DNA of 64,000 nucleotides from NCBI GenBank assembly GCA_963745025.1, contig CAVUWD010000019.1:288001-352000 (forward strand), read 5' to 3'. A program made the translations under genes and the position numbers. The DNA comes from an uncultured delta proteobacterium (GTDB taxonomy: Bacteria; Desulfobacterota; Binatia; JACPRU01). The notes under the pieces were generated by a model that searched no databases, was not told the origin of the DNA, and worked only from the letters and a program-made list of their open reading frames with translations. Positions 22,756-38,285 of this stretch are shown here, in pieces. How positions within the stretch are numbered: position 1 is the first letter of the stretch; each line of letters opens with the position of its first letter.

Positions 22756-24597
22756 ATGCCCCGGCGCGCGCGCTCGATCGCGATCGCCGCGGTCGCGGCG
22801 TGGGCGCTGGTGGCCTGTTTTTCCCGTCTCGGCGAACCGCCCGTGGTGATCACCAACGAGGCGCGAGAGGGAGTCTACGTGCGGGCGATGCTGCGCTCGG
22901 GAGACTTCTTGGCACCGCTCGTTCAGAACCACGTCGAGAACGACGAGCTCGTGCCCGACAAGCCGCCGCTGTTTCACTGGGTCGCCGCGGCCGCCACCCT
23001 GCTCCGCTCCCGTCTCTCCGGCGGGCCGCGGGTGCCGGGGCCGGATCTGTCGCGGCGCGTCGACGAGTGGACGCTGCGCTTTCCGTCGGCACTCTGCGCC
23101 TGCCTGCTGGTGATCTCGGTCGCCACGCTCGGCTCGTCATTCGTCGGAGAGCGGGCAGCGCTCTGTGCAGCGGCCGTGCTGCTCACCAGCGCGCAGTTCG
23201 GCTACCAGGCGCGCTTCGGACGCGTCGACATGACGCTCGCTTGCTTCGCATCGCTGGCGACCCTGCTCGCCGGCCGCGCGCTCCTCGATCCCCGCGAGGA
23301 CCGCTGGCTTCCTCTCGCGGGAGCGGCGGCCGGTCTCGCGGTGCTCGCCAAAGGACCACTCGGCGCGGTGTTGCCGGGGCTCGCGTGCGGAAGCGTTCTC
23401 GTCGCGCGCCGCTGGCGAAACCGCGCGGCGTCGCTGCCCGAGGGGGTGCGCTGGAGGACCGCTCTGGCGGCCCTCGCCGTCGTGGCGCTCCCCTGGTACG
23501 TCGTCGCCAGCGTGGCGCGCGGCGTCGTCGTGCTGCGCTCGCAGATCCTCGCCGAGAACTTCGTGCAGTTCGCGGGCATCGACGACCGCATGAACGAGCT
23601 CTACTACCTGCAGCCCTGGCTGCTCGATTCCTTCCCATGGAACCTGCTCGCCGTCGCGGCGCTCTTCGAAGCCTGGAGGCGTCGAGACCCTGGACCGAGG
23701 TTTTGTGCGAGCTGGTGGATTTCGTCGCTCGCCTTGTTTCAAATCGCCGCCTACAAGCGCCGGGCCTATCTCTTGCCGGCGCTTCCCGCCGAGGCGCTGC
23801 TCGCGGGATGGTTCGTCGATGCGGTGCTGCTGAGAGATCTGCCGCTGCCGTCGATCGATCTCTACGCGCTCGTGCGCCGGCTCGCGCGCCCGGCGCTTGT
23901 TTGTCTGACGGCAGCGGTCGTCGGGGCTCTCGGCGCGCCGCCTATCTATCGGATTTGGGTCGGCGACCAACTCCTTCATCCAATCGACGGTGCGCTCTTG
24001 CTCGGCGGCTCGGCGGCGATCGTGCTCGCCGCGCTGGCGCTCGTGCGGGCGCTGTTCACAGGGGATCGCTGGCGGACGCTCGTCGCCGTTTGCACCGGGC
24101 TCGGTGTTCTCTATGCCGCCGTCGTTCCGGCCGGCATGGCGGTGATCGCCAGACGGCGCTCGACGAAATCGCTGGTCGAGCGCATCGAGGCGACGCTTCC
24201 CGAGGGGAGCCGCCTCACGCTGTGCGGGATCGACCCGGATCCGAGCCTCCCCATCGTTTTCTACTTTCGCGACTCGGATCGGCTCGAGGTTTCCCGCGAC
24301 GGCGCTGCGTGCGCGAAGGACTCTGCCGCCGGCTCCTACCTCATCGCGGAGGCCGAATGGCTGCGCATAGAGCGACGCGGCGGTGAACGGGCTCTCTGGC
24401 ACGAGCGCCTGCGCGGCGAATTGCTGGGTTGGAGCCGTCGCTCCGGCGTCGTCTTGGCCGAGCGGATCGCTTCAAGAGCCGAGTCGGCGCCAGGGATCTC
24501 GATGGGCCAACCTTTTGCGGTACCTTTCGAGCCCCCGGCGCTCAGCACTGTTCGTGCTTCACGAATCCCGGGCACACGTTGTTGGCGCACGGGTTGA
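22756..24597 (+). CDS. ArnT/PMT-family glycosyltransferase (GT83-like)
   Basis: NEAREG, DKPPLFHW, LRFPSAL, RVDM, LAKGPLG and KRRAYLLP motifs; many TM segments. Confidence 0.9.
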   Translation: MPRRARSIAIAAVAAWALVACFSRLGEPPVVITNEAREGVYVRAMLRSGDFLAPLVQNHVENDELVPDKPPLFHWVAAAATLLRSRLSGGPRVPGPDLSRRVDEWTLRFPSALCACLLVISVATLGSSFVGERAALCAAAVLLTSAQFGYQARFGRVDMTLACFASLATLLAGRALLDPREDRWLPLAGAAAGLAVLAKGPLGAVLPGLACGSVLVARRWRNRAASLPEGVRWRTALAALAVVALPWYVVASVARGVVVLRSQILAENFVQFAGIDDRMNELYYLQPWLLDSFPWNLLAVAALFEAWRRRDPGPRFCASWWISSLALFQIAAYKRRAYLLPALPAEALLAGWFVDAVLLRDLPLPSIDLYALVRRLARPALVCLTAAVVGALGAPPIYRIWVGDQLLHPIDGALLLGGSAAIVLAALALVRALFTGDRWRTLVAVCTGLGVLYAAVVPAGMAVIARRRSTKSLVERIEATLPEGSRLTLCGIDPDPSLPIVFYFRDSDRLEVSRDGAACAKDSAAGSYLIAEAEWLRIERRGGERALWHERLRGELLGWSRRSGVVLAERIASRAESAPGISMGQPFAVPFEPPALSTVRASRIPGTRCWRTG

Positions 24598-25020
24598 TCG
24601 TGGTTCAGTAGAGAACCCCACCGCCTCAGCCGAACCGCCGCAGCCGACCGCCGATTGAATGGCGCTCAGCAGGACCGCGAGGTCGACCGTCTTGCGAAGC
24701 GTGGCCACCACGTGCGGCGATCGCGGCGCCAGGTCCGCGGCCGCGCTGAAGACGATCACAGGCACGTGCAACGTACGGTCTTGCTCGAAGGACTCCAGAA
24801 ACTGCCACCCGTTCATCTCCGGCATCTGGAGGTCCAGCAAGATTACGTCCGGCTGAGCGCCCTCTCGGAGCCGCTTCAGGCCGTCTCGGCCGTTGCCGGC
24901 TTCTGCGATCGCATGCCCCTGAAGCTTCAAGAGGTCGGCGAGGGGCTGTCGAATCGAGAGGTCATCCTCGATGACGAGAATCCTGGCCACATGTTCGTGG
25001 GGAAGCACGATCAATGCCAT
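24559..25020 (-). CDS. single-domain response regulator
   Basis: ILVIEDD, ILLDLQMPEMNG. Confidence 0.85.
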   Translation of the reverse strand: MALIVLPHEHVARILVIEDDLSIRQPLADLLKLQGHAIAEAGNGRDGLKRLREGAQPDVILLDLQMPEMNGWQFLESFEQDRTLHVPVIVFSAAADLAPRSPHVVATLRKTVDLAVLLSAIQSAVGCGGSAEAVGFSTEPRSTRAPTTCARDS

Positions 25021-25359
25021 CGTCTGCAGCTTGAAAAATCGGAGCAATCCCACGCGCGGTTCTTAACGGTGAGAACGTCGGCGTCACTTTTTCGACCGGT
25101 ATGAACCCCATGTGATGTGAGCTCCGAAGGACGATCCGCAGAACTCGCGGCACGGGTGCTTGCGTTCCCCTCGCGCTGCGGGGCAGGAGATGGAGGAAGT
25201 GCCGGCGTCCGAGAACGACCGTTGTGTAGCTTTCCGTGCGCGGAACGGCGGCTCAACGACGGCGGCGGGTAGGGCGAATGGCTGATGGACGCTTGGGCCC
25301 GTCGCTGGGCATCATGGTCGGCGCGAGGGCGCCGAACGTAGCCAGGAGGGAGGGCCGCG

Positions 25360-26496
25360 ATGCGACTCACCGAGGAACAGCTTGCGATCCGAGAGATGGT
25401 CCACGATCTGGCACGGGACCAGATCGCGCCGCGGGCAAAGGAGTGGGACGAGCGCGGCCGGTTCCCGGACGAGCTGCGGCGGCTTCTGGTCGAGCACGAG
25501 CTCTACGTGATGTACCTTCCGGAGGAGCTGGGCGGTCTCGGCTTCGACCTCGCGACGCAGTGCCTCGTGCTCGAGGAACTCGCCAAGGTGGACGGGTCGA
25601 CCGCGATGACCCTGCAGGACCAGGGCACTTCGAGCCACTTTCTGCTCACCGCGTGCACGCCGGAGCAGCGGCGGCGCCTCCTACCGCGTATTCGATCGGA
25701 GCAGCGCTTCGTTGCCTTCTGCTTGAGCGAGCCCGGGTCCGGCTCCGACGCGGGCGGGCTCGAGACGCGCGCGCGGCGCGAGGGCGACGAGTTCGTCCTG
25801 CGCGGCCAGAAGACCTGGGTCACCAACGGCGGGCCCGCGGAGTGGTACATCGTGTTCGCGCTCACCGACCCGGACAGGCGCACGCGCGGCGGCATCTCGG
25901 CGTTCCTCGTCGAGCGCGATGCGCCGGGCATGCAGCTCGGGCCCCCCATGAAGAAGATGGGGCTCCGGGCCTCCGCCACCGTAGACCTGTTCCTCGAGGA
26001 CGTGCGGGTCCCCGCCGATGCCTGTCTGGGGACCGAGGGGGCGGGTTTCAGCTACGCGATGAAGACGTTCGAGGCCTCGCGGCCCCAGGTGGCCACGGTG
26101 GCGCTGGGCCTCGCCGAAGGCGCCTACGAGTATGCTCTCGCATACGCGAAGCAGCGGCACGCCTTCGGCCGGCCGATTGCCGACTTCCAGGGTATCCAGT
26201 TCATGCTCGCGGACATGGTGACGCAGATCGCGGCCGCACGGCTCCTCGTCTACCAGGCCGCGCGCATGTACGACGAGGGACTGACGGACCTGACCTACCA
26301 CGCCTCCCTCGCCAAGCTCTTCGCCAGCGACACGGCGATGCAGGTCACCACCGACGCGGTCCAGATACTGGGCGGTGCCGGCTACGTCACCGAGCACCCG
26401 GTCGAGCGCATGATGCGCGACGCCAAGGTCACCCAGATCTTCGAGGGAACGAACCAGATCCAGCGGTTGCTCATCGCGCGACACATTCTGAAGTGA
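25360..26496 (+). CDS. acyl-CoA dehydrogenase
   Basis: FCLSEPGSGSD, GQKTWVTNG, QILGGAGY, IFEGTNQIQR. Confidence 0.96.
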   Translation: MRLTEEQLAIREMVHDLARDQIAPRAKEWDERGRFPDELRRLLVEHELYVMYLPEELGGLGFDLATQCLVLEELAKVDGSTAMTLQDQGTSSHFLLTACTPEQRRRLLPRIRSEQRFVAFCLSEPGSGSDAGGLETRARREGDEFVLRGQKTWVTNGGPAEWYIVFALTDPDRRTRGGISAFLVERDAPGMQLGPPMKKMGLRASATVDLFLEDVRVPADACLGTEGAGFSYAMKTFEASRPQVATVALGLAEGAYEYALAYAKQRHAFGRPIADFQGIQFMLADMVTQIAAARLLVYQAARMYDEGLTDLTYHASLAKLFASDTAMQVTTDAVQILGGAGYVTEHPVERMMRDAKVTQIFEGTNQIQRLLIARHILK

Positions 26497-26570
26497 CCGG
26501 CCGTCAATCCCGGCTTACATTCGACGCGGGGATCTCGCCGGTGGTTCCAGCGTGATGCATACGGAGGCAG

Positions 26571-28396: not shown

Positions 28397-29176
28397 CTAA
28401 TCCCCTTGATGTCGCGGTGTTTGCGAGCGGGCAAAGGAAGGTGTGGTCTCCGGAGGCTCGGGCTTCAGCCTGCCCTGCAAGAGAAGGAGCGCCGTGCCTG
28501 GATCGTCGGCGTACTGGAAGAGCTCAAGATCATCGCGATCGATCATGCCATGGCGGACGAGCGCGTCGAAATTGATGATCTCGTTCCAGTAGTCGCGCCC
28601 GTAAAGCAAGACGGGGATCGGCCGATCCAACTTGCGTGTTTGCGACAACGTCAGGACCTCGGCCAGCTCGTCGAGGGTGCCGAAACCTCCCGGGAAGACC
28701 ACAAGCGCACGGGCCAAATGCGCGAACCAGAGCTTCCGCATGAAGAAGTAGTGGAACTCGAACAACAGCTCGCGCGTGATGTAGGGATTCGGCCGCTGTT
28801 CGTGCGGTAACCCAATGTTGAGTCCGACCGTTCTTCCCCCGGCGTCGGAAGCGCCGCGATTGGCAGCCTCCATGATGCCGCCCCCTCCTCCCGAGCAGAC
28901 GATGTATCGATGAGCATGCGAAGGAAGGCCCTTCGACCATTCGGTCACGAGCCGCGCAAGTTCCCGAGCGTCATCGTAGTAGCGTCCGAGCGGACCATCA
29001 GGAGCAAGCCTCGCCGACCCGAAGAAGACGATCATGTCGTGGACGCGCTCGCGGCGAAAGGCCTGGAGCGGGCCGAGATACTCAGCGAGGATGCGGAGGG
29101 GGCGGGCATCGTCGCTGTCGAGAAACTTATGGTCCTTGTACGCGAGGGGGCGGTGCGTTGTCTCGGGCGGTTTCAT
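28397..29176 (-). CDS. LOG family protein (TIGR00730-like nucleotide phosphoribohydrolase)
   Basis: FFGSAR, SGGGGGIMEAANRGA, FMRK, PGGFGTLDE. Confidence 0.93.
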   Translation of the reverse strand: MKPPETTHRPLAYKDHKFLDSDDARPLRILAEYLGPLQAFRRERVHDMIVFFGSARLAPDGPLGRYYDDARELARLVTEWSKGLPSHAHRYIVCSGGGGGIMEAANRGASDAGGRTVGLNIGLPHEQRPNPYITRELLFEFHYFFMRKLWFAHLARALVVFPGGFGTLDELAEVLTLSQTRKLDRPIPVLLYGRDYWNEIINFDALVRHGMIDRDDLELFQYADDPGTALLLLQGRLKPEPPETTPSFARSQTPRHQGD

Positions 29177-30654
29177 CGGATTTGGACCCGCGCGAAATCG
29201 ATGAAGCCGCGCTCGACGTCGGTGTGGATGAGCTCGACGCGAACGCGCTCTCCCACATCAAGGTGCTCGAAACCCCGAACGACCTTTCCCTCTGCGGCTG
29301 GGTGAATGATTCGGACCCAGGTGCCCTTCGTCGAGGCGCCGGTCACGATGGCGTCGAATCGCTGCCCGATCCGCGACTGCAGCAGCAGCGCGGCAGCTGA
29401 CTTTCGCACCTGTCGCTCCACCTTGGTCGCGTTGTCCTCCTGTGCCGTGCAGTGCTGGGCCATTTCTCCGAGCTCCTCGTTGCCGTAGGGTACTGGTCGT
29501 CCTTCAAGCGCCGCTTTCAACAGTCGCTGCGCGATGAGATCCGGGAAACGCCGGTTCGGCGCGGTGGAGTGCGTGTAGTCGTTCACGGCAAGCCCGAAAT
29601 GGCCCTCGGCGCGTCGACCGGGAAGCTCGAGCACATACTCGCCCCGGCCCAAGAGCTTTACTACGGAGAGCGAGAGATCGGGAAAGCGCGCAGGATCTGC
29701 CTGCCGGCGTCTCCTCAGGAACCCCTCGAGAGCCGGAGCACTCGGTTCTGACGGGAGACGCTCGCCGAGGGCTGCAGCCATCTCGACGATTCGCTCCCAA
29801 CGCTCGGGCGAGCGCAGAACACGGCGTAGCGACGGGAAGCCCTTCTGCTCGAGATACCTGGCGGTCACCCCGTTGGCCGCGATCATGAAGTCTTCGATCA
29901 GCTCCTTGGCCCGATTCTTCTCGTCAACTCGTAGGTCGGCCAGCACATCGCCATCGAACAAGGCCCGAGCTTCGATCGTCTCCAGACTGAGCGCGCCGTG
30001 TTGGTGCCGGAGCTCCTTCAACGCCTGCGCCGCCCGATCCTGCATGCGCAGTTGCTGATCGAGTCCCGGTACCGCCGAGATCCGTGCCGGCGCGGGCGCG
30101 GTGCCATTGAGCCAGGCAGCCACGCCGTTGTAGGCGAGCTTCGCATGATTGACCACGACGGCCCGATAGACGTCAGACTCCTCCAGTAGTGCGCCGTCGG
30201 CTCTGACCGCCATCTCGATGACGATCGCCAGCCGCTCCTGACCCTCCGCGAGGGATGTGAGGTCCGTCGACAACTTCTCCGGGAGCATCGGGAAGATCTC
30301 GGCGGCCGTGTAGACCGACGTCGTGTTGGCTCGCGCGTGGCCATCGATTGCGGAACCTTCCTCGACGATGGCGTCGACGTCGGCCACCGCAACGAGGATC
30401 TTCACCGCGTTGCCGACGCTCGGCACCGCGACCGAGAGCTGGTCGAGATCGCGCGAATCATCGTTGTCGATCGACGCCCAGAGCAAACCCCGAAGGTCGC
30501 GGAGGGAAGCGTTAGCCTCCGTGGCCGATCTCGTAATGGAGTCCGTTTCCGCGAGAACCGCAGCGGAGAATTCCGGCAGCAGTCCCCGTTGGAGCATCGC
30601 TCGTCGAGCGATGCTCCTGAGCCTGCTTCGAGCCGGAGTGGTCGTCCGATTCAT
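29173..30654 (-). CDS. RNB-domain exoribonuclease with C-terminal S1 domain
   Basis: SIDNDDSRDLDQ, LIEDFMIAAN, HFGLA..YTHSTAPNRRFPD. Confidence 0.93.
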   Translation of the reverse strand: MNRTTTPARSRLRSIARRAMLQRGLLPEFSAAVLAETDSITRSATEANASLRDLRGLLWASIDNDDSRDLDQLSVAVPSVGNAVKILVAVADVDAIVEEGSAIDGHARANTTSVYTAAEIFPMLPEKLSTDLTSLAEGQERLAIVIEMAVRADGALLEESDVYRAVVVNHAKLAYNGVAAWLNGTAPAPARISAVPGLDQQLRMQDRAAQALKELRHQHGALSLETIEARALFDGDVLADLRVDEKNRAKELIEDFMIAANGVTARYLEQKGFPSLRRVLRSPERWERIVEMAAALGERLPSEPSAPALEGFLRRRRQADPARFPDLSLSVVKLLGRGEYVLELPGRRAEGHFGLAVNDYTHSTAPNRRFPDLIAQRLLKAALEGRPVPYGNEELGEMAQHCTAQEDNATKVERQVRKSAAALLLQSRIGQRFDAIVTGASTKGTWVRIIHPAAEGKVVRGFEHLDVGERVRVELIHTDVERGFIDFARVQIR

Positions 30655-30711
30655 CGGCGCCCGACGATATCCCTGAAAGCCGTCGCGCTCCAGATACAGA
30701 AGCGCGCCCGC

Positions 30712-30900
30712 TCGTTCCACGTCGGCGTGCGGAAGGCTTGGTAGTGGCCGGCGCGCAGCGAGACGTGCTCGGAGGCGTGATAGAGGAACGCCGCCTTGGG
30801 GCTCACCGCGGTGCGATCACGATCGCCGAACTGCCGATCGACGACCGTGTCGCCGGCAGCTCGGTCGCGCTCGAGCCGGAAGAGGTCGACCCAGAAGATG
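30712..30900 (-). pseudogene. TonB-dependent receptor internal remnant
   Basis: AVSPKAAFLYHASEHVSLRAGHYQAFRTPTWNE resembles the SP+..L.Y...SLR...YRAFRAPT.NE barrel motif. Confidence 0.6.
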
Positions 30901-30991
30901 AATTTGCCCCATGACTTGATCGCCGCATTGACCGAGCCCACCCAAGATCGCGCGTCGCGCCGTCAGGTGCAAGAGTGCCGAGACTGGGAGA

Positions 30992-31471
30992 TCAAGCGCC
31001 GGGCGCCGACAATTTCGCCGCTTCTCGAATCAGGATGTCGCGAACCAGTTCTGTCGTCTTGCCTACCAGCCGAATGCATCTCGCGAGCTTTTCAGGCGAA
31101 GCGATATAGGCCTTGACCTCTTCGGGCTTGGTGAAATCCGTGCCGGTGATGTCTCGGCAAAAGTGGCTGCATTCGATCTCGGTCGCGAAGCGACGGTAAA
31201 GCTCGGCGCACAGCGGGAAGAGCTTGCCGTCTTCCTTTTCCTCCAGCTTTCCCTTGCCGTATCTGGAGCTAAGCGCTGCCACGCCGCCGACAATCGCCCC
31301 GCACACCGAGCCCAACCCGCCGATTCCGCCACCGAAACCGCCCATCATCCGTACGGCATCCGCGTCCTCCTCCCCCAAAATCTCCTGCACGACCTGCAGG
31401 ACGGTCTGGCTTCAATGATAGCCGTTCTTGATGCAGAAGGTCGTCCGCTCCGTAATGTTGATGTCCTTCAA
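30992..31471 (-). CDS. C-GCAxxG-C-C family selenoprotein (Sec at the first conserved Cys)
   Basis: Continuous frame LKDINITERTTFCIKNGYH-U-SQTVLQ...GFGGGIGGLGSVCGAIVGG...CRDITG...C; TGA at 31412-31414; AGGAGG RBS before TTG. Confidence 0.88.
31384..31400 (-). promoter_or_regulatory. bacterial SECIS element
   Basis: CCUGCA-GGUCG-UGCAGG hairpin starting 11 nt after the UGA; similar in spacing and sequence to the E. coli fdhF SECIS (GUUGCAGGUCUGCAC). Confidence 0.8.
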
Positions 31472-31530
31472 CTTTATGGTTTCCTCCTGCCTGCCGCGAG
31501 GCGATTGTCGAGAGCTGTCGATCAAAGGCA

Positions 31531-31546
31531 AGCACCATTCGTGCCA
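31531..31546 (-). promoter_or_regulatory. sigma54 (-24/-12) promoter candidate for the selenoprotein gene
   Basis: TGGCACGAATGGTGCT with GG-N10-GC spacing, 60 bp upstream of the start. Confidence 0.6.
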
Positions 31547-31876
31547 GCGAGGTTGTCGGTTCAGCGCGATAGAAACCGCAATCGGACCGTGCTCGCCGAA
31601 GCATTGATCCGCGCGTCGCGGCTCACTATGACGCTCTTGGCGCCAGATCGGCTGCAAGTGTTGACTCCGCCGGAACCACGAAGCCGTAGCCACGCGCTGC
31701 CCGCTCAAGCACGAGCAAGCCGTTGGGGAAGCGGATTTCAACGGCCCGCTTCCTCTCTCTCGTCTCCCCCTAGCAGCGGTGAGCCCGATGGCGACGCCTG
31801 CTTGATCAAGATTCCGATGGTCAAGGAGAGCGCAACATCCGGAACTTCTTCAACACGAGCTCTCAGTCACAGGGAG

Positions 31877-32299
31877 TCAAGATGCGCGCAGCGCGACCAA
31901 GATCCCCATCCAGAACATACAGACCGCCTGGGTGAGGAAGAAGGCGAAACGGACTCCCACCACCGTCGTCGTCGGCTGCAAGACGATGTGGACGGTCGTC
32001 TGGCAAACACGCGCGACGAGGAGAACGACGGCGAGCGCGTCGAGCACTGGAGAACTAGCACCGCTCGTCACGATCGCGACCACGACCGCGCCGTAGACGG
32101 GCAGGTTCTCGATGCAGTTCGCGTGTGCCCGCATCGCTCGCCGATACCAGTCCGCCCCGTGCGGCACGTCGGCGACGAACTCAGTGATCCTGGCGCGTCC
32201 CGTGAGGATCCGGCTCCAGCGGTAGACGCCAATGCTTCCGAAGAGCGTGACCAGGGTCCAGCCTGCGAAGCCAAGGAGCACCCAAACGGGAACACTCAT
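31877..32299 (-). CDS. MAPEG family membrane protein
   Basis: RAMRAHANCIENLP; 4 TM segments. Confidence 0.88.
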   Translation of the reverse strand: MSVPVWVLLGFAGWTLVTLFGSIGVYRWSRILTGRARITEFVADVPHGADWYRRAMRAHANCIENLPVYGAVVVAIVTSGASSPVLDALAVVLLVARVCQTTVHIVLQPTTTVVGVRFAFFLTQAVCMFWMGILVALRAS

Positions 32300-32332
32300 G
32301 AAAGGATCATCTCCGCGGTACTCGCCGAGGCG

Positions 32333-33742
32333 TCACCCGCGGTAGGGACAGTCGCCGCGCTGGAGGTTCCCCATGGCGTCGTAGGTCGCGTACTTGTACA
32401 TGTCCGACAGGCTGGGATAGTTGAAGCAGGTGTCGATGAAGGTGGCGGTCGTGGCCCCCATCGTCATGCCGACGAGACCGCTCGCGATCAGCTCACAGGC
32501 ATTCTCGCCGATCATGTGCACCCCCAGCAGCTGCTCCTCCGGGAGGGAGAACACCAGCTTCAGCAGGCCCCAGCGCTCCCCGATCAGCGCTCCACGAGGG
32601 TTCTGCTGGTACCGGCAGCGCCCGGCGACGTAGGGACGCCTCTTCGCGCGCAGGCTCTCCTCCGTCTCTCCCACCATGGACAGCTCGGGGATGGTCCACA
32701 CACCGATCGGCAGCTGTCGCGCGATGCCGGTCTTGTACTTCAGGTCGAAGGCGTTCACCATCGCCATCCGCGCCTGCTCCATGGCGGTCGAGGACAGAGC
32801 CAGGCCGCCGATCACGTCACCGGCGGCATAGATGTGCGGCACGTTCGTCTGGAACCGCTCGTTGACCTCGAGCTGGCGGTGCTCGTTGAGCCGGACCCCG
32901 GCGCGGTCGAGTCCGAGCCCCTCCACGTTGCTCCGACGGCCGAGCGCCATCAGCACCGCCTCGGCCTCGAGCCTCCGCCCGTCCTGGAGGACCACGACGG
33001 GCACGTCGCGCCCGTCGACCTCGGCGACGTGCTGTGGCATCAGCAACTCGACCCCGATCGATTCCATCGCCTCCTGGAGCATGGTGGCGACCTCGGCATC
33101 GGCGAACGGCAGGAGCCGGTCGCCCGCGTTGATCACGCGGACATGGTCCAGGCCAAGGACCTTGAACAGGCAGGCGTACTCGCACCCGATTGTCCCGCCG
33201 CCGATGATTGCCAGTGACCGTGGGAGCCGGGTCATCTCGAGGATGGTGTCGGAGTCGTAAACACGCGGGTCGTCGAACGGAATCGTCGCGGGACGGATCG
33301 GCCGCGAGCCCGTGGCGATGAGAACGATCTGCCCGTGCAACAGGGTCTGGGTGTCCTCGTCGACGACCTTTACGGTGTGGGCGTCGACGAACGAGGCGAC
33401 GCCGCGATAGACATCGACGTGATGGCGGTCGAGGTTGGTCCCGACCCACTCGCTGAGCGCCTCGCGGACGACACGGCCGCGACGCATGAATGCGTCCACG
33501 GTGATCGTTCCATCGTAGCTGAGCCGGATGCCGTGCAGGTCGCGGCCCCGGAGGCCCGAGAGGTAGAGCGCGGTCTCGCGCATGGCCTTGCCCGGAATTC
33601 CAGTGTTGGCCACCGCGCCCCCGAGACGCGATGCGCGCTCGATCAGCGCCACCCTCTTGCCGAAGTAGGCGGCCTGAGCGGCGCCCTTCTCGCCGCCGGG
33701 TCCGGAGCCGATCACGACGAGATCGTAAGTCGCTCTTTCCAT
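32333..33742 (-). CDS. sthA: Si-specific soluble NAD(P)+ transhydrogenase
   Basis: YDLVVIGSGPGGEKGA, IYAAGDVIG, FNYPSLSDMYK. Confidence 0.88.
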   Translation of the reverse strand: MERATYDLVVIGSGPGGEKGAAQAAYFGKRVALIERASRLGGAVANTGIPGKAMRETALYLSGLRGRDLHGIRLSYDGTITVDAFMRRGRVVREALSEWVGTNLDRHHVDVYRGVASFVDAHTVKVVDEDTQTLLHGQIVLIATGSRPIRPATIPFDDPRVYDSDTILEMTRLPRSLAIIGGGTIGCEYACLFKVLGLDHVRVINAGDRLLPFADAEVATMLQEAMESIGVELLMPQHVAEVDGRDVPVVVLQDGRRLEAEAVLMALGRRSNVEGLGLDRAGVRLNEHRQLEVNERFQTNVPHIYAAGDVIGGLALSSTAMEQARMAMVNAFDLKYKTGIARQLPIGVWTIPELSMVGETEESLRAKRRPYVAGRCRYQQNPRGALIGERWGLLKLVFSLPEEQLLGVHMIGENACELIASGLVGMTMGATTATFIDTCFNYPSLSDMYKYATYDAMGNLQRGDCPYRG

Positions 33743-34041
33743 CGCTGGCTATCTTAGTCGAATCGGCTCACCGAGATCATCAGCGTTTCGTTAGCCGGAA
33801 TTGCCGGAACCGGACCCGGCGATGAAAGCGAATACGATAAAATATCGGTCAGCGATGACGGACGATTCGTTAGTTTCACCTCTTCTCGTGAAGGAGTCAG
33901 CGTAGGAAGCGCCCCCGACTCGTCGTCGGGAACCTGAATTGAGAACCTGATTTGACGACGAAGTTACCACGTGCTTGTGTAAGCTAAGTGCCCAGACGCG
34001 ATGTTGTGTGCGCATCACTCTATCGAACCATGGAGTAGACC

Positions 34042-34251
34042 ATGAAGCTAAGCGCTCGCAATGTACTCAAGGCCAAGGTGAAATCTGTGAAGCACGGCGC
34101 CGTGAACTCGGAGGTGATACTGGAACTCGCCGGCGGAGCGGAAATCGTTTCGATCATCACGAGCTCTTCCGCGAAACACCTCGGTCTGAGGCGGGGAGGC
34201 GAGGCATATGCGGTGATCAAAGCGTCGAACGTGATCATCGCCACCGACTGA
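34042..34251 (+). CDS. TOBE/Mop molybdate-binding protein
   Basis: MKLSARNVLKAKV...SIIT..S...LGL..G..AYAVIKASNV. Confidence 0.93.
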   Translation: MKLSARNVLKAKVKSVKHGAVNSEVILELAGGAEIVSIITSSSAKHLGLRRGGEAYAVIKASNVIIATD

Positions 34252-34389
34252 TCCGCCGCTCAAGCCGAAAACTGCCTCCGCGACTCTTACGCGCCCGCGA
34301 CCTGCACTGATCGGCGCCCGCCCGCCGGCACGGGGTCGGGCACCCTCGACGCCGCGCACCCCTGTCGCAAACCCTCGCCGGAGCGCGCC

Positions 34390-35979
34390 CTAGATCAGCA
34401 GGTCCCAATCCGTGTAGGAGAGGAGGGCCCGTCGCGTCGCTTCCTTTACGCGCAAATCGAAGAAGTCGATCGGATTGTAGTCGTCGGACAGCGTGATGGC
34501 CGGAGTGCGGTCGGGAAAAGAGAATTCCTTCCCCAACACCGCGCCGATGAGAGGCTCGGCCAGGTGGTGAACCGGGAAATCTTTGACCCGCTGCGGGTCG
34601 AACGAAAGCGAGCCGTCGTCGTAGGCGATCAGCGCGATGTTCTGGGGATCGGCGCCGCCGGCCGGATCGAGGTTCGGATAGGCCTTCACCGTTCCGAAGA
34701 CCTGCGCGAGAGTCCCGACGATGGACGCTGTCATGAATGGTTCTCGTTGCAAGCTGCCGACCAGGTTGATGGCGACGATGCCCTTCTTGGTGAGTCTCTC
34801 GTGCAGGAGCCGGAATGCCTCGAGGCTCATCACATGGGACGGAGCCCAGTCGCCGCCGGCGACGTCCACGATGATGTAGTCGTACTTCTTGTCCGACGTG
34901 GCCAGATGGTACCGCGCGTCGGAAATGATCACGTCTCCCGAGATCCTGAACCCGAAGAACTTCCCGGCGATGTCCGCGATCGCCGGGTTGATGTCGACCA
35001 CGTCCGTGCGGATGCCGCGCGCCTCGAACCACATCGGGATGACTCCCGCGCCCAGGCCGAGGACAAGGCAATTCTTCCCGGCCGGATTGATCCCGTAGGG
35101 CAGGAATTCCATCAGGTACGGGTACTCGTACGCGGACAGTCCGTTCGCCATGTCCACGCCGCTCTGGATCAGGCCGTCGATCGCCAACTCGCGGATGTGG
35201 CGGTCTCCGTTGGAGTAATCGAGGACCTTGAGACTTCCGTAGAAGCTGTCCGCCACGAACACTTCGGCCACCTTGGTCCCGTTCGCCTGGATCTTCTCGC
35301 GCAGCCCCGGCATCCGAAAGATGAAGCACGGCAGGATCAAGAGCCCGAGAAAAAACAGCCTTTTCCGGAAGACCGTGAAGTAGGCGACGGACAGGCAGAT
35401 CAGCGACAGGCCGACGAATTCGAAGATGCGGTCCACCCGGAAGTACGCGATCAGCACGAAGCCGGTGAGTACCGTGCCGAGGAAGCTTCCGATCGTCGAT
35501 ACGGCGTAGAAGAGACCGACGGTTCGGCCGATGTTCGTCATCTCGCGGGCGGCAATCCTCACGATATAGGGAGACACGCAGCCGAGGAGAAAAAGAGAAG
35601 GCCCGAACAGCAGCGTGGCGCTGACGAGTGAACCCGTGCGCAGACCGAAGGACATGCAGGCCTTGAGGACGGACGGCTTCAGGTGGGGGATCAGAAGAAC
35701 CAGGAACCCGGCGACCAGGATGATTCCGTAGAGGTACACCGGGTCGCTCTTCCGGTCCGACAACAGGCCGCCCGCGGCATAGCCCAGGGCCAGGGCGACC
35801 AGAGTGACCGTGATCAACGATGTCCATACGAACAGGCTGACCCCGAAGAAGGGTCCGACAACTTTCGAGCCGAGAACCTCGATGACCATCACCAGCCCGC
35901 CGCAGAGAACGGACGTGACGACCAGGAAGAACAGGAAAACCGGCGAATCGGATCCTGGGTGGCCCGGAGGCGGATTCAC
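34390..35979 (-). CDS. membrane-domain/spermidine synthase-like fusion
   Basis: MVIEVLGSKVVGPFFGVSLFVW TM domain plus VLGLGAG..VVDIN..DAR SAM-binding domain. Confidence 0.9.
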   Translation of the reverse strand: MNPPPGHPGSDSPVFLFFLVVTSVLCGGLVMVIEVLGSKVVGPFFGVSLFVWTSLITVTLVALALGYAAGGLLSDRKSDPVYLYGIILVAGFLVLLIPHLKPSVLKACMSFGLRTGSLVSATLLFGPSLFLLGCVSPYIVRIAAREMTNIGRTVGLFYAVSTIGSFLGTVLTGFVLIAYFRVDRIFEFVGLSLICLSVAYFTVFRKRLFFLGLLILPCFIFRMPGLREKIQANGTKVAEVFVADSFYGSLKVLDYSNGDRHIRELAIDGLIQSGVDMANGLSAYEYPYLMEFLPYGINPAGKNCLVLGLGAGVIPMWFEARGIRTDVVDINPAIADIAGKFFGFRISGDVIISDARYHLATSDKKYDYIIVDVAGGDWAPSHVMSLEAFRLLHERLTKKGIVAINLVGSLQREPFMTASIVGTLAQVFGTVKAYPNLDPAGGADPQNIALIAYDDGSLSFDPQRVKDFPVHHLAEPLIGAVLGKEFSFPDRTPAITLSDDYNPIDFFDLRVKEATRRALLSYTDWDLLI

Positions 35980-36262: not shown

Positions 36263-36846
36263 GCGCCCCGCGACCACTCGATCGCCTGCTCGAGGCGGTC
36301 GTTCCCCCAGAAGAGCTCGCCGCGCGCGACGAAGCTCGGCGCGCCGAAGACGCCGAGCGCGGCCGCTGCTTCCGTCTGCCGGCGGAGCTTCTCCCTATTG
36401 CCCGGAGCGAGCGCGCGGGCGATCGTTTCGGCCGCGGGCATGCCGATCGCCGCGAGGATCGCGCCGATCGTCGCTTCGGTGGCGATGTCGCGGTCCTCGG
36501 CGAAGTTCGCGAAGTAGGCCCGCCGCGTGAACTCCGGCACCCACGGCTCGCCGAGACTCGCGACGCGCGCGGCGAGGAGGCCGTTTCGCGGAAAGACGCT
36601 CGGACGCCGGAGCGTGAGCCCCTCCCGCGCGCAGAGCCGCTCCATGTCGCGCCACATGTAGCGGCCCTTCACCGGATAGAGGTTGAACGGCGAGTCGTTC
36701 CAGCCTTGCTTCTGGAAGATCGGGCCGAGGAGGAAGGGCTTCCACCGGACGTCCACGCCGGCCGCGCCGGCGAGGCGCTCGACCCGCATGGCGGCGAGAT
36801 ACGAGTACGTGCTCGCGAACTCGTACCAGAAGTCGAGCGTCGTCAT
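36259..36846 (-). CDS. 2-hydroxychromene-2-carboxylate isomerase (DsbA/GST-kappa family)
   Basis: DFWYEFASTYSYLA, GVFGAPSF..GELFWGNDRL. Confidence 0.92.
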   Translation of the reverse strand: MTTLDFWYEFASTYSYLAAMRVERLAGAAGVDVRWKPFLLGPIFQKQGWNDSPFNLYPVKGRYMWRDMERLCAREGLTLRRPSVFPRNGLLAARVASLGEPWVPEFTRRAYFANFAEDRDIATEATIGAILAAIGMPAAETIARALAPGNREKLRRQTEAAAALGVFGAPSFVARGELFWGNDRLEQAIEWSRGA

Positions 36847-37111
36847 CGCGGCCCCGATGATTCCATGCGCGGGGCGCAGACGGAAGTCGCCGGCCGGCTC
36901 GGAATCTCAGCCTCCCTCGGATTGCACTCCCTCCCAAGGTTCTGCCGGGGTCCCCACGGTATACTCGATGTCTGTCGGCTGATCCTGCCGGCAGGTCAAC
37001 GAATGAATTTGTGACCGGGGGAATCGGTGTCTCGCTTCGGTCGTCCTTGAGCCGCACCGAGCGCGGGGATAGTGTGCCTTCGCTTGTAGCCCGAGATCGA
37101 AAGGAGCCACC

Positions 37112-38032
37112 ATGTCCGAGATGCGCGAGATCACTGCCGGCCTGCAGTTTCCCGAAGGACCGATTGCGATGCCCGACGGGAGCGTAATCCTGGTCGAGAT
37201 CAAGCGCGGCACGCTGTCGCACGTGACGCCGAACGGGAAAATCGAGGTAATCGCCGAGACCGGCGGCGGCCCGAACGGCGCGGCGATCGGGCCCGATGGC
37301 AAGGTGTACATCTGCAACGACGGCGGTTTCGAGTGGTCCGAGATCAACGGCCTGACGGTTCCCGGCCACCAGCCCCACGATTACAGCGGCGGCCGCATCG
37401 AGCGTGTCGACCTCAAGACCGGCAAGGTCGAGGTGCTCTACACGGAGTGCGACGGCCATCTGCTGCGCGGACCGAACGACATCGTCTTCGACCGGACCGG
37501 CGGATTCTGGTTCACCGACCACGGCAAGGTCCGTGAGCGCGAGCGCGACCGAACCGGCGTCTACTACGCGAAGCCGGACGGATCGCTGATCCGTGAGGTG
37601 ATCTTTCCGATCGATTCGCCGAACGGTGTCGGCCTGTCGCCCGACGAGAAGACGCTCTACGTAGCGGAGACGTGGACCGGGCGGCTGTGGGCGTGGGACG
37701 TTCCCGCCCCGGGCCAGATCGCCCCGGGAAACCAGCCGTTCACTCCCGGCGGCGGCCACTTGCTCGCCGGTGTCCGGGGCTTCCAGCTCTTCGACTCGCT
37801 TGCGGTTGACTCCGCCGGTAACGTCTGCGTGGCGACGATCATCAACGGCGGCATCACCGTGGTTTCGCCAGATGGATCGAAGGTAGACCACGTGCCGATG
37901 CCCGACCCGCTCACCACGAACGTCTGCTTTGGCGGACCGGATCTTAAGACCGCGTTCGTGACCCTCTCGGGAACCGGCAAGCTCGTCTCCATCCCGTGGC
38001 CACGCCCGGGGCTGCGCTTGAACTTCTGCTGA
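37112..38032 (+). CDS. SMP-30/gluconolactonase/LRE family protein
   Basis: FPEGP, GPNDIVFD, PNGVGLSPD, TNVCFGGPD. Confidence 0.93.
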   Translation: MSEMREITAGLQFPEGPIAMPDGSVILVEIKRGTLSHVTPNGKIEVIAETGGGPNGAAIGPDGKVYICNDGGFEWSEINGLTVPGHQPHDYSGGRIERVDLKTGKVEVLYTECDGHLLRGPNDIVFDRTGGFWFTDHGKVRERERDRTGVYYAKPDGSLIREVIFPIDSPNGVGLSPDEKTLYVAETWTGRLWAWDVPAPGQIAPGNQPFTPGGGHLLAGVRGFQLFDSLAVDSAGNVCVATIINGGITVVSPDGSKVDHVPMPDPLTTNVCFGGPDLKTAFVTLSGTGKLVSIPWPRPGLRLNFC

Positions 38033-38069
38033 ACGGAACTGCCTGCTCGGCACCCCGGCAAGCTCGCGG

Positions 38070-38285
38070 GTCACGCAGGCGCTCGCTTTGGCGCGGCTGA
38101 AGGGCGAGGGCATCGCGCCGATTCCGGGCACCAAACGCGTGTCTCATCTGGTAGAGGACGTAGAGGGTGCGGACATGGCCTTGAGCGCGGCCGACGTCGC
38201 TCATCTCGACGAGCTGTTTGCGCCCGCCAACATCGTGGGCAAGCGTTATCCGCCGGCGCTCGCCGCATCCATCGACAGCGATTGA
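38070..38285 (+). pseudogene. aldo/keto reductase C-terminal remnant
   Basis: QALAL..GIAPIPGTKRVSHLVEDVEGA..LS..D...G.RY. Confidence 0.75.

Follow-up and report, generated by a model that had tools for sequence, protein, structure and literature searches.

A probable C-GCAxxG-C-C family selenoprotein gene with a sigma54-type promoter element in a Binataceae-type metagenome-assembled genome

A gene for a small cysteine-rich protein, which automated gene calling splits into two pieces, in a 64-kb stretch of DNA (64,000 nucleotides, here called the window) from an uncultured soil or wetland bacterium, almost certainly decodes its internal TGA as selenocysteine (Sec). The combined evidence makes it highly probable that this is a genuine C-GCAxxG-C-C selenoprotein gene in a Binataceae-type metagenome-assembled genome, for which we infer transcription from its own sigma54 promoter and a redox or metal-centre role; selenium incorporation at the UGA is a prediction from sequence. 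A preliminary description of the window had called the gene a hidden selenoprotein and had held that Sec variants of the family exist. The second statement is right, and for that reason "hidden" does not apply in the sense of novel: the NCBIfam name of TIGR01909 is "C-GCAxxG-C-C family (seleno)protein," and two reviews (PMC9312934 and PMC13188914) list C-GCAxxG-C-C as a prokaryotic selenoprotein family. Since the family was already known to include selenoproteins, the finding amounts to a well-founded correction of an annotation, not to a discovery. Its practical weight lies in the public protein records of this clade, most of which are cut at the UGA and hence lack the residue most likely to be catalytic.

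The coding region is a single minus-strand frame of 159 codons, and translation with TGA read as U confirmed the earlier observation that the open reading frame track divides one gene whose only interruption is a TGA (Table 1). Gene calling with translation table 11 instead yields one piece at 31412..31741, ending in ...NGYH*, and another at 30992..31390, with a GTG start and 132 residues. The AGGAGG ribosome-binding site reported upstream of the gene was also found where it had been described. Its distance of 11 nt from the TTG start is rather far, orthologues having GGAGG-type sites 6 to 8 nt before their starts. In alignment with the closest Sec orthologue (L026), the TTG falls opposite its ATG, and comparison of the 17 codons before the TGA in the two genes gave 8 identical, 5 synonymous, and 4 non-synonymous codons. 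This N-terminal peptide is conserved, and the ribosome-binding site and start codon line up with the orthologous ones, which indicates that the frame upstream of the TGA is coding.

Table 1. Features of the selenoprotein gene and its upstream region (window coordinates)
Feature	Position	Strand	Basis or detail
C-GCAxxG-C-C family selenoprotein CDS (predicted)	30992..31471	-	complete, 159 residues, TTG start, Sec codon 20
Start codon TTG	31471-31469	-	translation
In-frame UGA, predicted Sec codon 20	31412..31414	-	context GYH-U-SQ; first conserved Cys column
Terminal TGA	30992-30994	-	translation
Shine-Dalgarno AGGAGG	31483..31488	-	read directly from sequence; 11 nt upstream of TTG
SECIS upper stem-loop UCCUGCA-GGUCG-UGCAGGA	31383..31401	-	RNA fold; 7-bp stem, loop GGUCG
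Predicted 5-bp lower stem	31409-31405 / 31379-31375	-	RNA fold; whole structure 31375-31409
sigma54-type -24/-12 element TGGCACGAATGGTGCT	31531..31546	-	-24 GG 31544-31545; -12 GC 31532-31533
Candidate upstream activator site, imperfect palindrome TGGCGC-CAAGA-GCGTCA	31629..31645	-	about 100 nt upstream of -24

Read through the TGA, the protein matches Pfam PF09719 (C_GCAxxG_C_C) at 88.7 bits against a cut-off of 27, over profile positions 1 to 118 of 118, and NCBIfam TIGR01909 at 77.7 bits against a cut-off of 47.4, over positions 1 to 120 of 120. The alignment to the C_GCAxxG_C_C HMM that had been proposed as a check therefore gives a full-length match above cut-off, and it places the TGA at the first conserved Cys of the family, as had been claimed. 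The four-Cys pattern C ... xCGAxxG ... C ... C is present with U20 in the first column, followed by C57 (in an SVCGAIVG motif), C105, and C132, the last three of which are invariant across 25 aligned sequences. The window gene is the only PF09719 gene in the genome.

Relatives of the gene carry either Sec or Cys at this column. In an alignment of 24 of the 64 homologous protein clusters, all 10 homologues that reach the first-Cys column have Cys there (GFH-C-SQTVL). The other 14 start just past the column, which is expected if their genes are also cut at a TGA, and only 8 of the 64 homologue matches cover at least 94% of the query. Twenty related loci were fetched and 18 examined, the two weakest (L044 and L045), with matches lacking the N-terminus, being left out. 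The codon at the first-Cys column is TGA in 10 of the 18 and TGC or TGT in 8. Within the Binataceae clade the nine loci divide into five with TGA (L026, L031, L032, L033, and L034) and four with TGC (L027 to L030), so Sec and Cys forms occur side by side within one orthologue group. All five Rokubacteria loci (L035, L036, L037, L039, and L040) have TGA, and all four distant loci (two from Bathyarchaeota, one from Hodarchaeota, and one from an Acidobacteriota member) have TGC or TGT. In one Cys-form locus (L030, also recorded as L023; G038:C13, about 24571-25038), the Ser of relatives is replaced by an in-frame TAG (GMG*VCGAI) and a point change disrupts the hairpin discussed below; gene decay or a fault in the assembly is the probable cause.

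A search of the phylum found the PF09719-type family in 183 of 301 genomes. One in-frame TGA was present in 24 of the 150 matches listed from this search, the window gene included, and of 14 TGA-bearing members fetched from among those 24, all except one have the TGA at the first-Cys column. The exception (L053; G258:C30:14511-15070) keeps its first Cys and has the TGA about 24 residues downstream (GIEH*QAMK), which may be the other "form" of Sec placement given in reviews, or a defect.

Contigs from four public runs, compared over 30700-31900, provided independent copies of the region. One DNA contig, from a sediment metagenome (X4), extends across the entire gene and promoter with 40 differences over 1145 bases (about 96.5% identity), and a metatranscriptomic-library contig (X16) covers 30944-31467, on both sides of the TGA, with 18 differences. 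Neither contig differs from the window at 31412-31414 or within 31383-31401; the codon is TGA in both, and the TGC or TGT named beforehand as a refuting observation was seen in neither. Fourteen contig differences were listed inside the gene, 7 of them synonymous. A second RNA-library contig (X17) covers 30962-31321, and the contigs of run X1 leave 31192-31765 uncovered, a gap in contig cover that proves nothing. The RNA-library contigs are a weak hint of expression and no proof of transcription. Those of two different studies end at 30944 and 30962, 30 to 48 nt past the stop, where the DNA contig continues. Their ends give a weak hint of a transcript 3' end, and no terminator-like hairpin was found at 30944-30962.

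The hairpin CCUGCA-GGUCG-UGCAGG described 11 nt downstream of the UGA is real, and its fuller form has a 7-bp stem that begins 10 nt past the UGA. The bSECISearch consensus model, as given in the Fig. 2 legend of PMC13188914, allows a loop of 3 to 9 nt with a G within the first two loop positions, a stem of 4 to 16 bp, a UGA-to-loop distance of 16 to 37 nt, and a minimum free energy of -7.5 kcal/mol or lower. Checked against this bacterial SECIS model, the window hairpin lies within every limit stated in that legend (5-nt loop, 7-bp stem, GG loop start, 17-nt spacing, -10.3 kcal/mol), and the same is true for all 11 TGA loci (the window and 10 others) and for 3 of the 8 Cys loci. Chance alone lets 134 of the 1544 TGA trinucleotides in the window satisfy it, including 76 whose stem is at least 7 bp long, and the 61-nt fold is unremarkable (z = -0.62; folds as good or better in 48 of 200 shuffles). 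An Rfam scan of 29000-34000 at E up to 10 returned no SECIS family and two chance-level matches only. A strict perfect-stem script found no hairpin in 7 of 14 TGA-bearing phylum members, which does not imply absence of a SECIS because bulges were disallowed.

The Rokubacteria stem differs (CUGCUGGC/GCCGGCAG), and two Desulfobacterota-type members have the stem UUCUUGC/GCAAGAA under a GGUCGG loop, indicating that the hairpin structure is kept while the stem sequence changes, with a GGUCG(G) loop on different stems across lineages. Three Cys-form orthologues (L029, L027, and L028) keep an equivalent hairpin, and the other five Cys loci fail the model. Common codons for the peptide VLQVVQ (or VLHVVQ) supply much of the hairpin, which is in part their by-product. 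The support for Sec insertion is the combination of elements and their conservation in relatives, the chance levels of the single elements being unimpressive.

The inference that the host decodes Sec was borne out by the genome, where selA, selB, selD, and tRNA-Sec were all located; rpoN is present as well. The genes selD, selB, and selA adjoin one another outside the window, all on the minus strand (G000:C20:20417-25012), and score 385, 397, and 571 bits, respectively, all above their cut-offs. The tRNA-Sec lies at C15:65252-65342, with an Rfam score of 76.5 bits and an ARAGORN call of tRNA-SeC with anticodon TCA, and rpoN scores 454.5 bits. The selD gene also contains one in-frame TGA (motif ...KAAG-U-AAKLGP), which gives the host at least one further gene that requires Sec decoding. 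The case shows that Binataceae-type bacteria decode Sec and that their selenophosphate synthetase, SelD, belongs to the selenoproteins as well. The metagenome bin consists of 20 contigs, is 92.65% complete, and has 7.6% contamination. Its Sec genes are on contigs C20 and C15 and the window on C19; their G+C contents are alike (0.645 to 0.662), in a genome of uniform G+C (0.642 to 0.671).

Among relatives, selA was present in each of the two Sec-form genomes searched for it (L034 and L031). Of three Cys-form genomes, two (L027 and L028, for which completeness is not given) yielded no selA match and the third (L029) has the gene. Such a distribution is consistent with repeated switching between Sec and Cys, some lineages having lost the Sec trait, and the two Cys-form genomes with no detected selA still retain the hairpin. 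In the L034 genome, selA matches as three consecutive pieces in different frames (G332:C1:471564-472903), which suggests frameshifts, either from long-read assembly errors or in a broken gene, though the Sec-form protein is kept. The protein query gave no match in any of seven genomes of the same genus or family (65 to 84% complete), a result that does not imply absence of the gene.

Two explanations would remove the selenoprotein altogether. If the TGA were a true stop, the product would be the 132-residue protein starting at GTG 31390, and the upstream 19 codons would form an untranslated leader. Table 11 calling yields just this open reading frame, and 14 of the 24 aligned homologues are recorded in N-truncated form. 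However, a product that began at this GTG would be missing the family's first conserved Cys as well as the opening positions of the profile, no ribosome-binding site precedes the GTG, and the upstream 19 codons are conserved as protein and preceded by a ribosome-binding site and a start in register with the orthologous ones. Cys-form orthologues read straight through the same column, and the same TGA in the DNA of L026 and L031 to L034 explains the truncated database entries, which leaves a true stop very unlikely. The other explanation, a pseudogene or assembly error in which a recent TGC-to-TGA nonsense change marks a dying gene, has a precedent in the clade, where the Cys form of L030 (G038) with its in-frame TAG and degraded hairpin points to decay. 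Yet in the case of the window gene the same TGA recurs in 10 other loci from two phyla-level groups and in independent contigs of other studies, the remaining frame is intact and under constraint, and no other PF09719 gene exists in the genome; we regard this explanation as more improbable still than a true stop. Decoding of the TGA as Sec is the reading carried forward here.

Control of the gene can be approached from its upstream region, where the sigma54 box of the preliminary description was recovered at 31546-31531. The element TGGCACGAATGGTGCT has GG and GC ten bases apart and matches the sigma54 -24/-12 consensus (TGGCAC-N5-TTGC context), which would place the transcription start near 31520. 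It is the only pattern match in the window, where 0.13 matches are expected, and at least one match arose in 11 of 100 shuffles. Across the genome there are 27 copies of TGGCAC-N6-TGC[AT] versus about 24 expected from base composition, hence no enrichment. In 8 of 10 orthologous Binataceae-clade loci, GGCA[CT]-N6-TGC occurs 47 to 74 nt before the assumed start (a range for which the assumed start is one codon off in L034 and L033), and the element is lacking in the other two (L032 and L029). In an alignment of four diverged upstream regions, the -24/-12 element is the only invariant block of the proximal part. No sigma70-like site was found within 30700-31950. Enhancer-dependent transcription is likely, given that the -24/-12 element is conserved in 8 of 10 orthologous loci and that rpoN is present in the genome. 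The genome also contains 27 Sigma54_activat matches, 22 of them at E 1e-60 or lower; no such domain was found anywhere in the 64-kb window or, for 14 related loci, inside a distance of 4 kb. The titles and abstracts of the literature consulted on the C-GCAxxG-C-C family mention nothing on regulation, and the conserved sigma54-type promoter is a modest new point for the family.

Upstream of the -24/-12 element, the imperfect palindrome listed in Table 1 forms a block conserved between the window and L026, where it is perfect and where the flanks have diverged. It is a candidate activator site, to be taken as a lead only. A palindrome scan of the genome found 16 sites, only two of which, besides that of the window gene, have sigma54-like elements downstream. 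Both of these carry a perfect TGACGC-N5-GCGTCA: one (L047; G000:C8, about 179975) is flanked by genes for an AMP-binding ligase and a luciferase-like oxygenase, and the other (L048; G000:C16, about 417908) by a gene for a multi-domain cytochrome c and a 153-residue open reading frame with no Pfam match. Sigma54-like -24/-12 elements lie on both sides of each palindrome, and the two sites could represent divergent sigma54 promoters under the same activator as the selenoprotein gene. The idea of a coherent palindrome regulon was rejected, as the genes at these two sites show no common theme.

The surroundings of the gene were compared with those of its relatives. Upstream on the same strand are genes for a MAPEG protein (31877..32299) and an SthA-type flavoprotein (32333..33742), and downstream are an RNase II-type (RNB) gene, a LOG-family gene, and an SDR. 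An earlier statement that the gene sits near MAPEG, sthA, and a Mop gene holds for the first two, both upstream; for the third, no Mop/TOBE match was present among the 12 window open reading frames scanned against Pfam. When the window SDR, LOG, RNB, MAPEG, SthA, and DsbA proteins were compared by tblastn with 14 related loci, matches were obtained for SDR and LOG only, and only in L033, and all-against-all clustering of open reading frames from the related loci gave no shared neighbour besides shadow ORFs and an SDR. Gene order is not conserved, so MAPEG and sthA are uninformative on function, and the neighbourhood was rejected as a clue because MAPEG, SthA, and RNB accompany the gene in none of the 14 related loci. 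The gene looks like a single-gene unit. Four long open reading frames elsewhere in the window (34235-35979 and 36395-38134 on the minus strand, 25236-26555 and 34564-35631 on the plus strand; 355 to 579 residues) had no counterpart in Pfam at an E threshold of 1e-4 (1e-5 for one scan), and some of them may be shadow frames in this 66% G+C sequence.

The selenoprotein could be real and the sigma54 element still not be a working promoter, with transcription reaching the gene by read-through from sthA-MAPEG or starting at an unrecognised promoter. The three genes share a strand, no terminator-like site was found on the minus strand between MAPEG and the selenoprotein gene, the genome-wide motif count is at chance level, no activator gene is nearby, and two orthologues lack the element. 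Set against these points, a 405-nt gap follows MAPEG, and 8 of 10 orthologous loci, where neither MAPEG nor sthA lies upstream, have the element in the corresponding position. By base composition arithmetic a 200-nt window is expected to hold the pattern about 0.01 times by chance, and the genome encodes rpoN and more than 20 activators. On balance, transcription without the sigma54 element appears unlikely, and a dedicated sigma54 promoter is the preferred reading.

Structure prediction offered a first idea of what the protein might do. The AlphaFold model is all-helical (pLDDT 92.5), and a wide structure search matched it to split-Soret cytochrome c (1h21_A; Z 13.8, rmsd 3.1 A, 139 residues aligned), with model residues 1-156 superposed on residues 23-195 and the next best match at Z 5.0. 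The same structure was the only PDB sequence match (E = 0.0013), with the similarity falling at the xCGAxxG motif and the final Cys; a Foldseek search of the PDB gave no match at E of 0.001 or lower and ranked 1h21 first. The iron centre of 1H21 is, we assume, a [2Fe-2S]-type cluster held by four Cys. The title of PDB entry 1h21 refers to it as "a novel iron centre." [quoted passage not shown] The cytochrome has a GFxC motif where the window protein has GYH-U, and the window protein lacks the CxxCH haem sites, the C-terminal cytochrome part, and the twin-arginine signal. Going by the model, it would be a free-standing form of the N-terminal iron-centre domain of split-Soret cytochrome c, and a cytoplasmic location is probable, since the sequence contains neither a Tat-type RR signal nor a CxxCH motif for haem c. 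The most likely role, judged from the modelled fold and the conserved residues, is that of a small redox or metal-centre protein in which Sec replaces the first of four Cys. A more specific proposal is considerably more doubtful: a haem-less cytoplasmic iron-centre domain with Sec20 as a ligand of, or reactive partner beside, an Fe-S-type centre, induced by a sigma54 activator that binds TGACGC-N5-GCGTCA. If true, it would describe an inducible, selenium-dependent metal-centre protein. The structural tie to split-Soret cytochrome c gives a family with no established function a testable idea.

The expression pathway suggested by these elements would begin at the gene's own sigma54 (-24/-12) promoter and hence would depend on an enhancer-binding activator encoded elsewhere. 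Translation would start at TTG 31471, and at UGA codon 20 SelB carrying Sec-tRNA(Sec) would bind the hairpin 10 nt downstream, allowing selenocysteine to be inserted. The insertion step is modelled on the established bacterial pathway, all sequence components of which are present. The predicted product is a 159-residue all-helical protein with conserved positions U20, C57, C105, and C132.

In its parts the gene resembles known bacterial systems. The GGUC loop motif of the window hairpin resembles the Escherichia coli fdhF element, and the bulged U of the fdhF element is absent from the window hairpin. Compared with the fdhF SECIS, the window stem is short, folds as a perfect 7 bp, and has part of its sequence dictated by VLQVVQ. 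Known C-GCAxxG-C-C selenoproteins share with the window protein the full HMM match, Sec in the first position, and a hairpin after the UGA, and nothing essential differs. The window gene belongs to a Binataceae-clade orthologue group of this family, one set apart by public protein records that are mostly N-truncated and by a conserved sigma54-type promoter.
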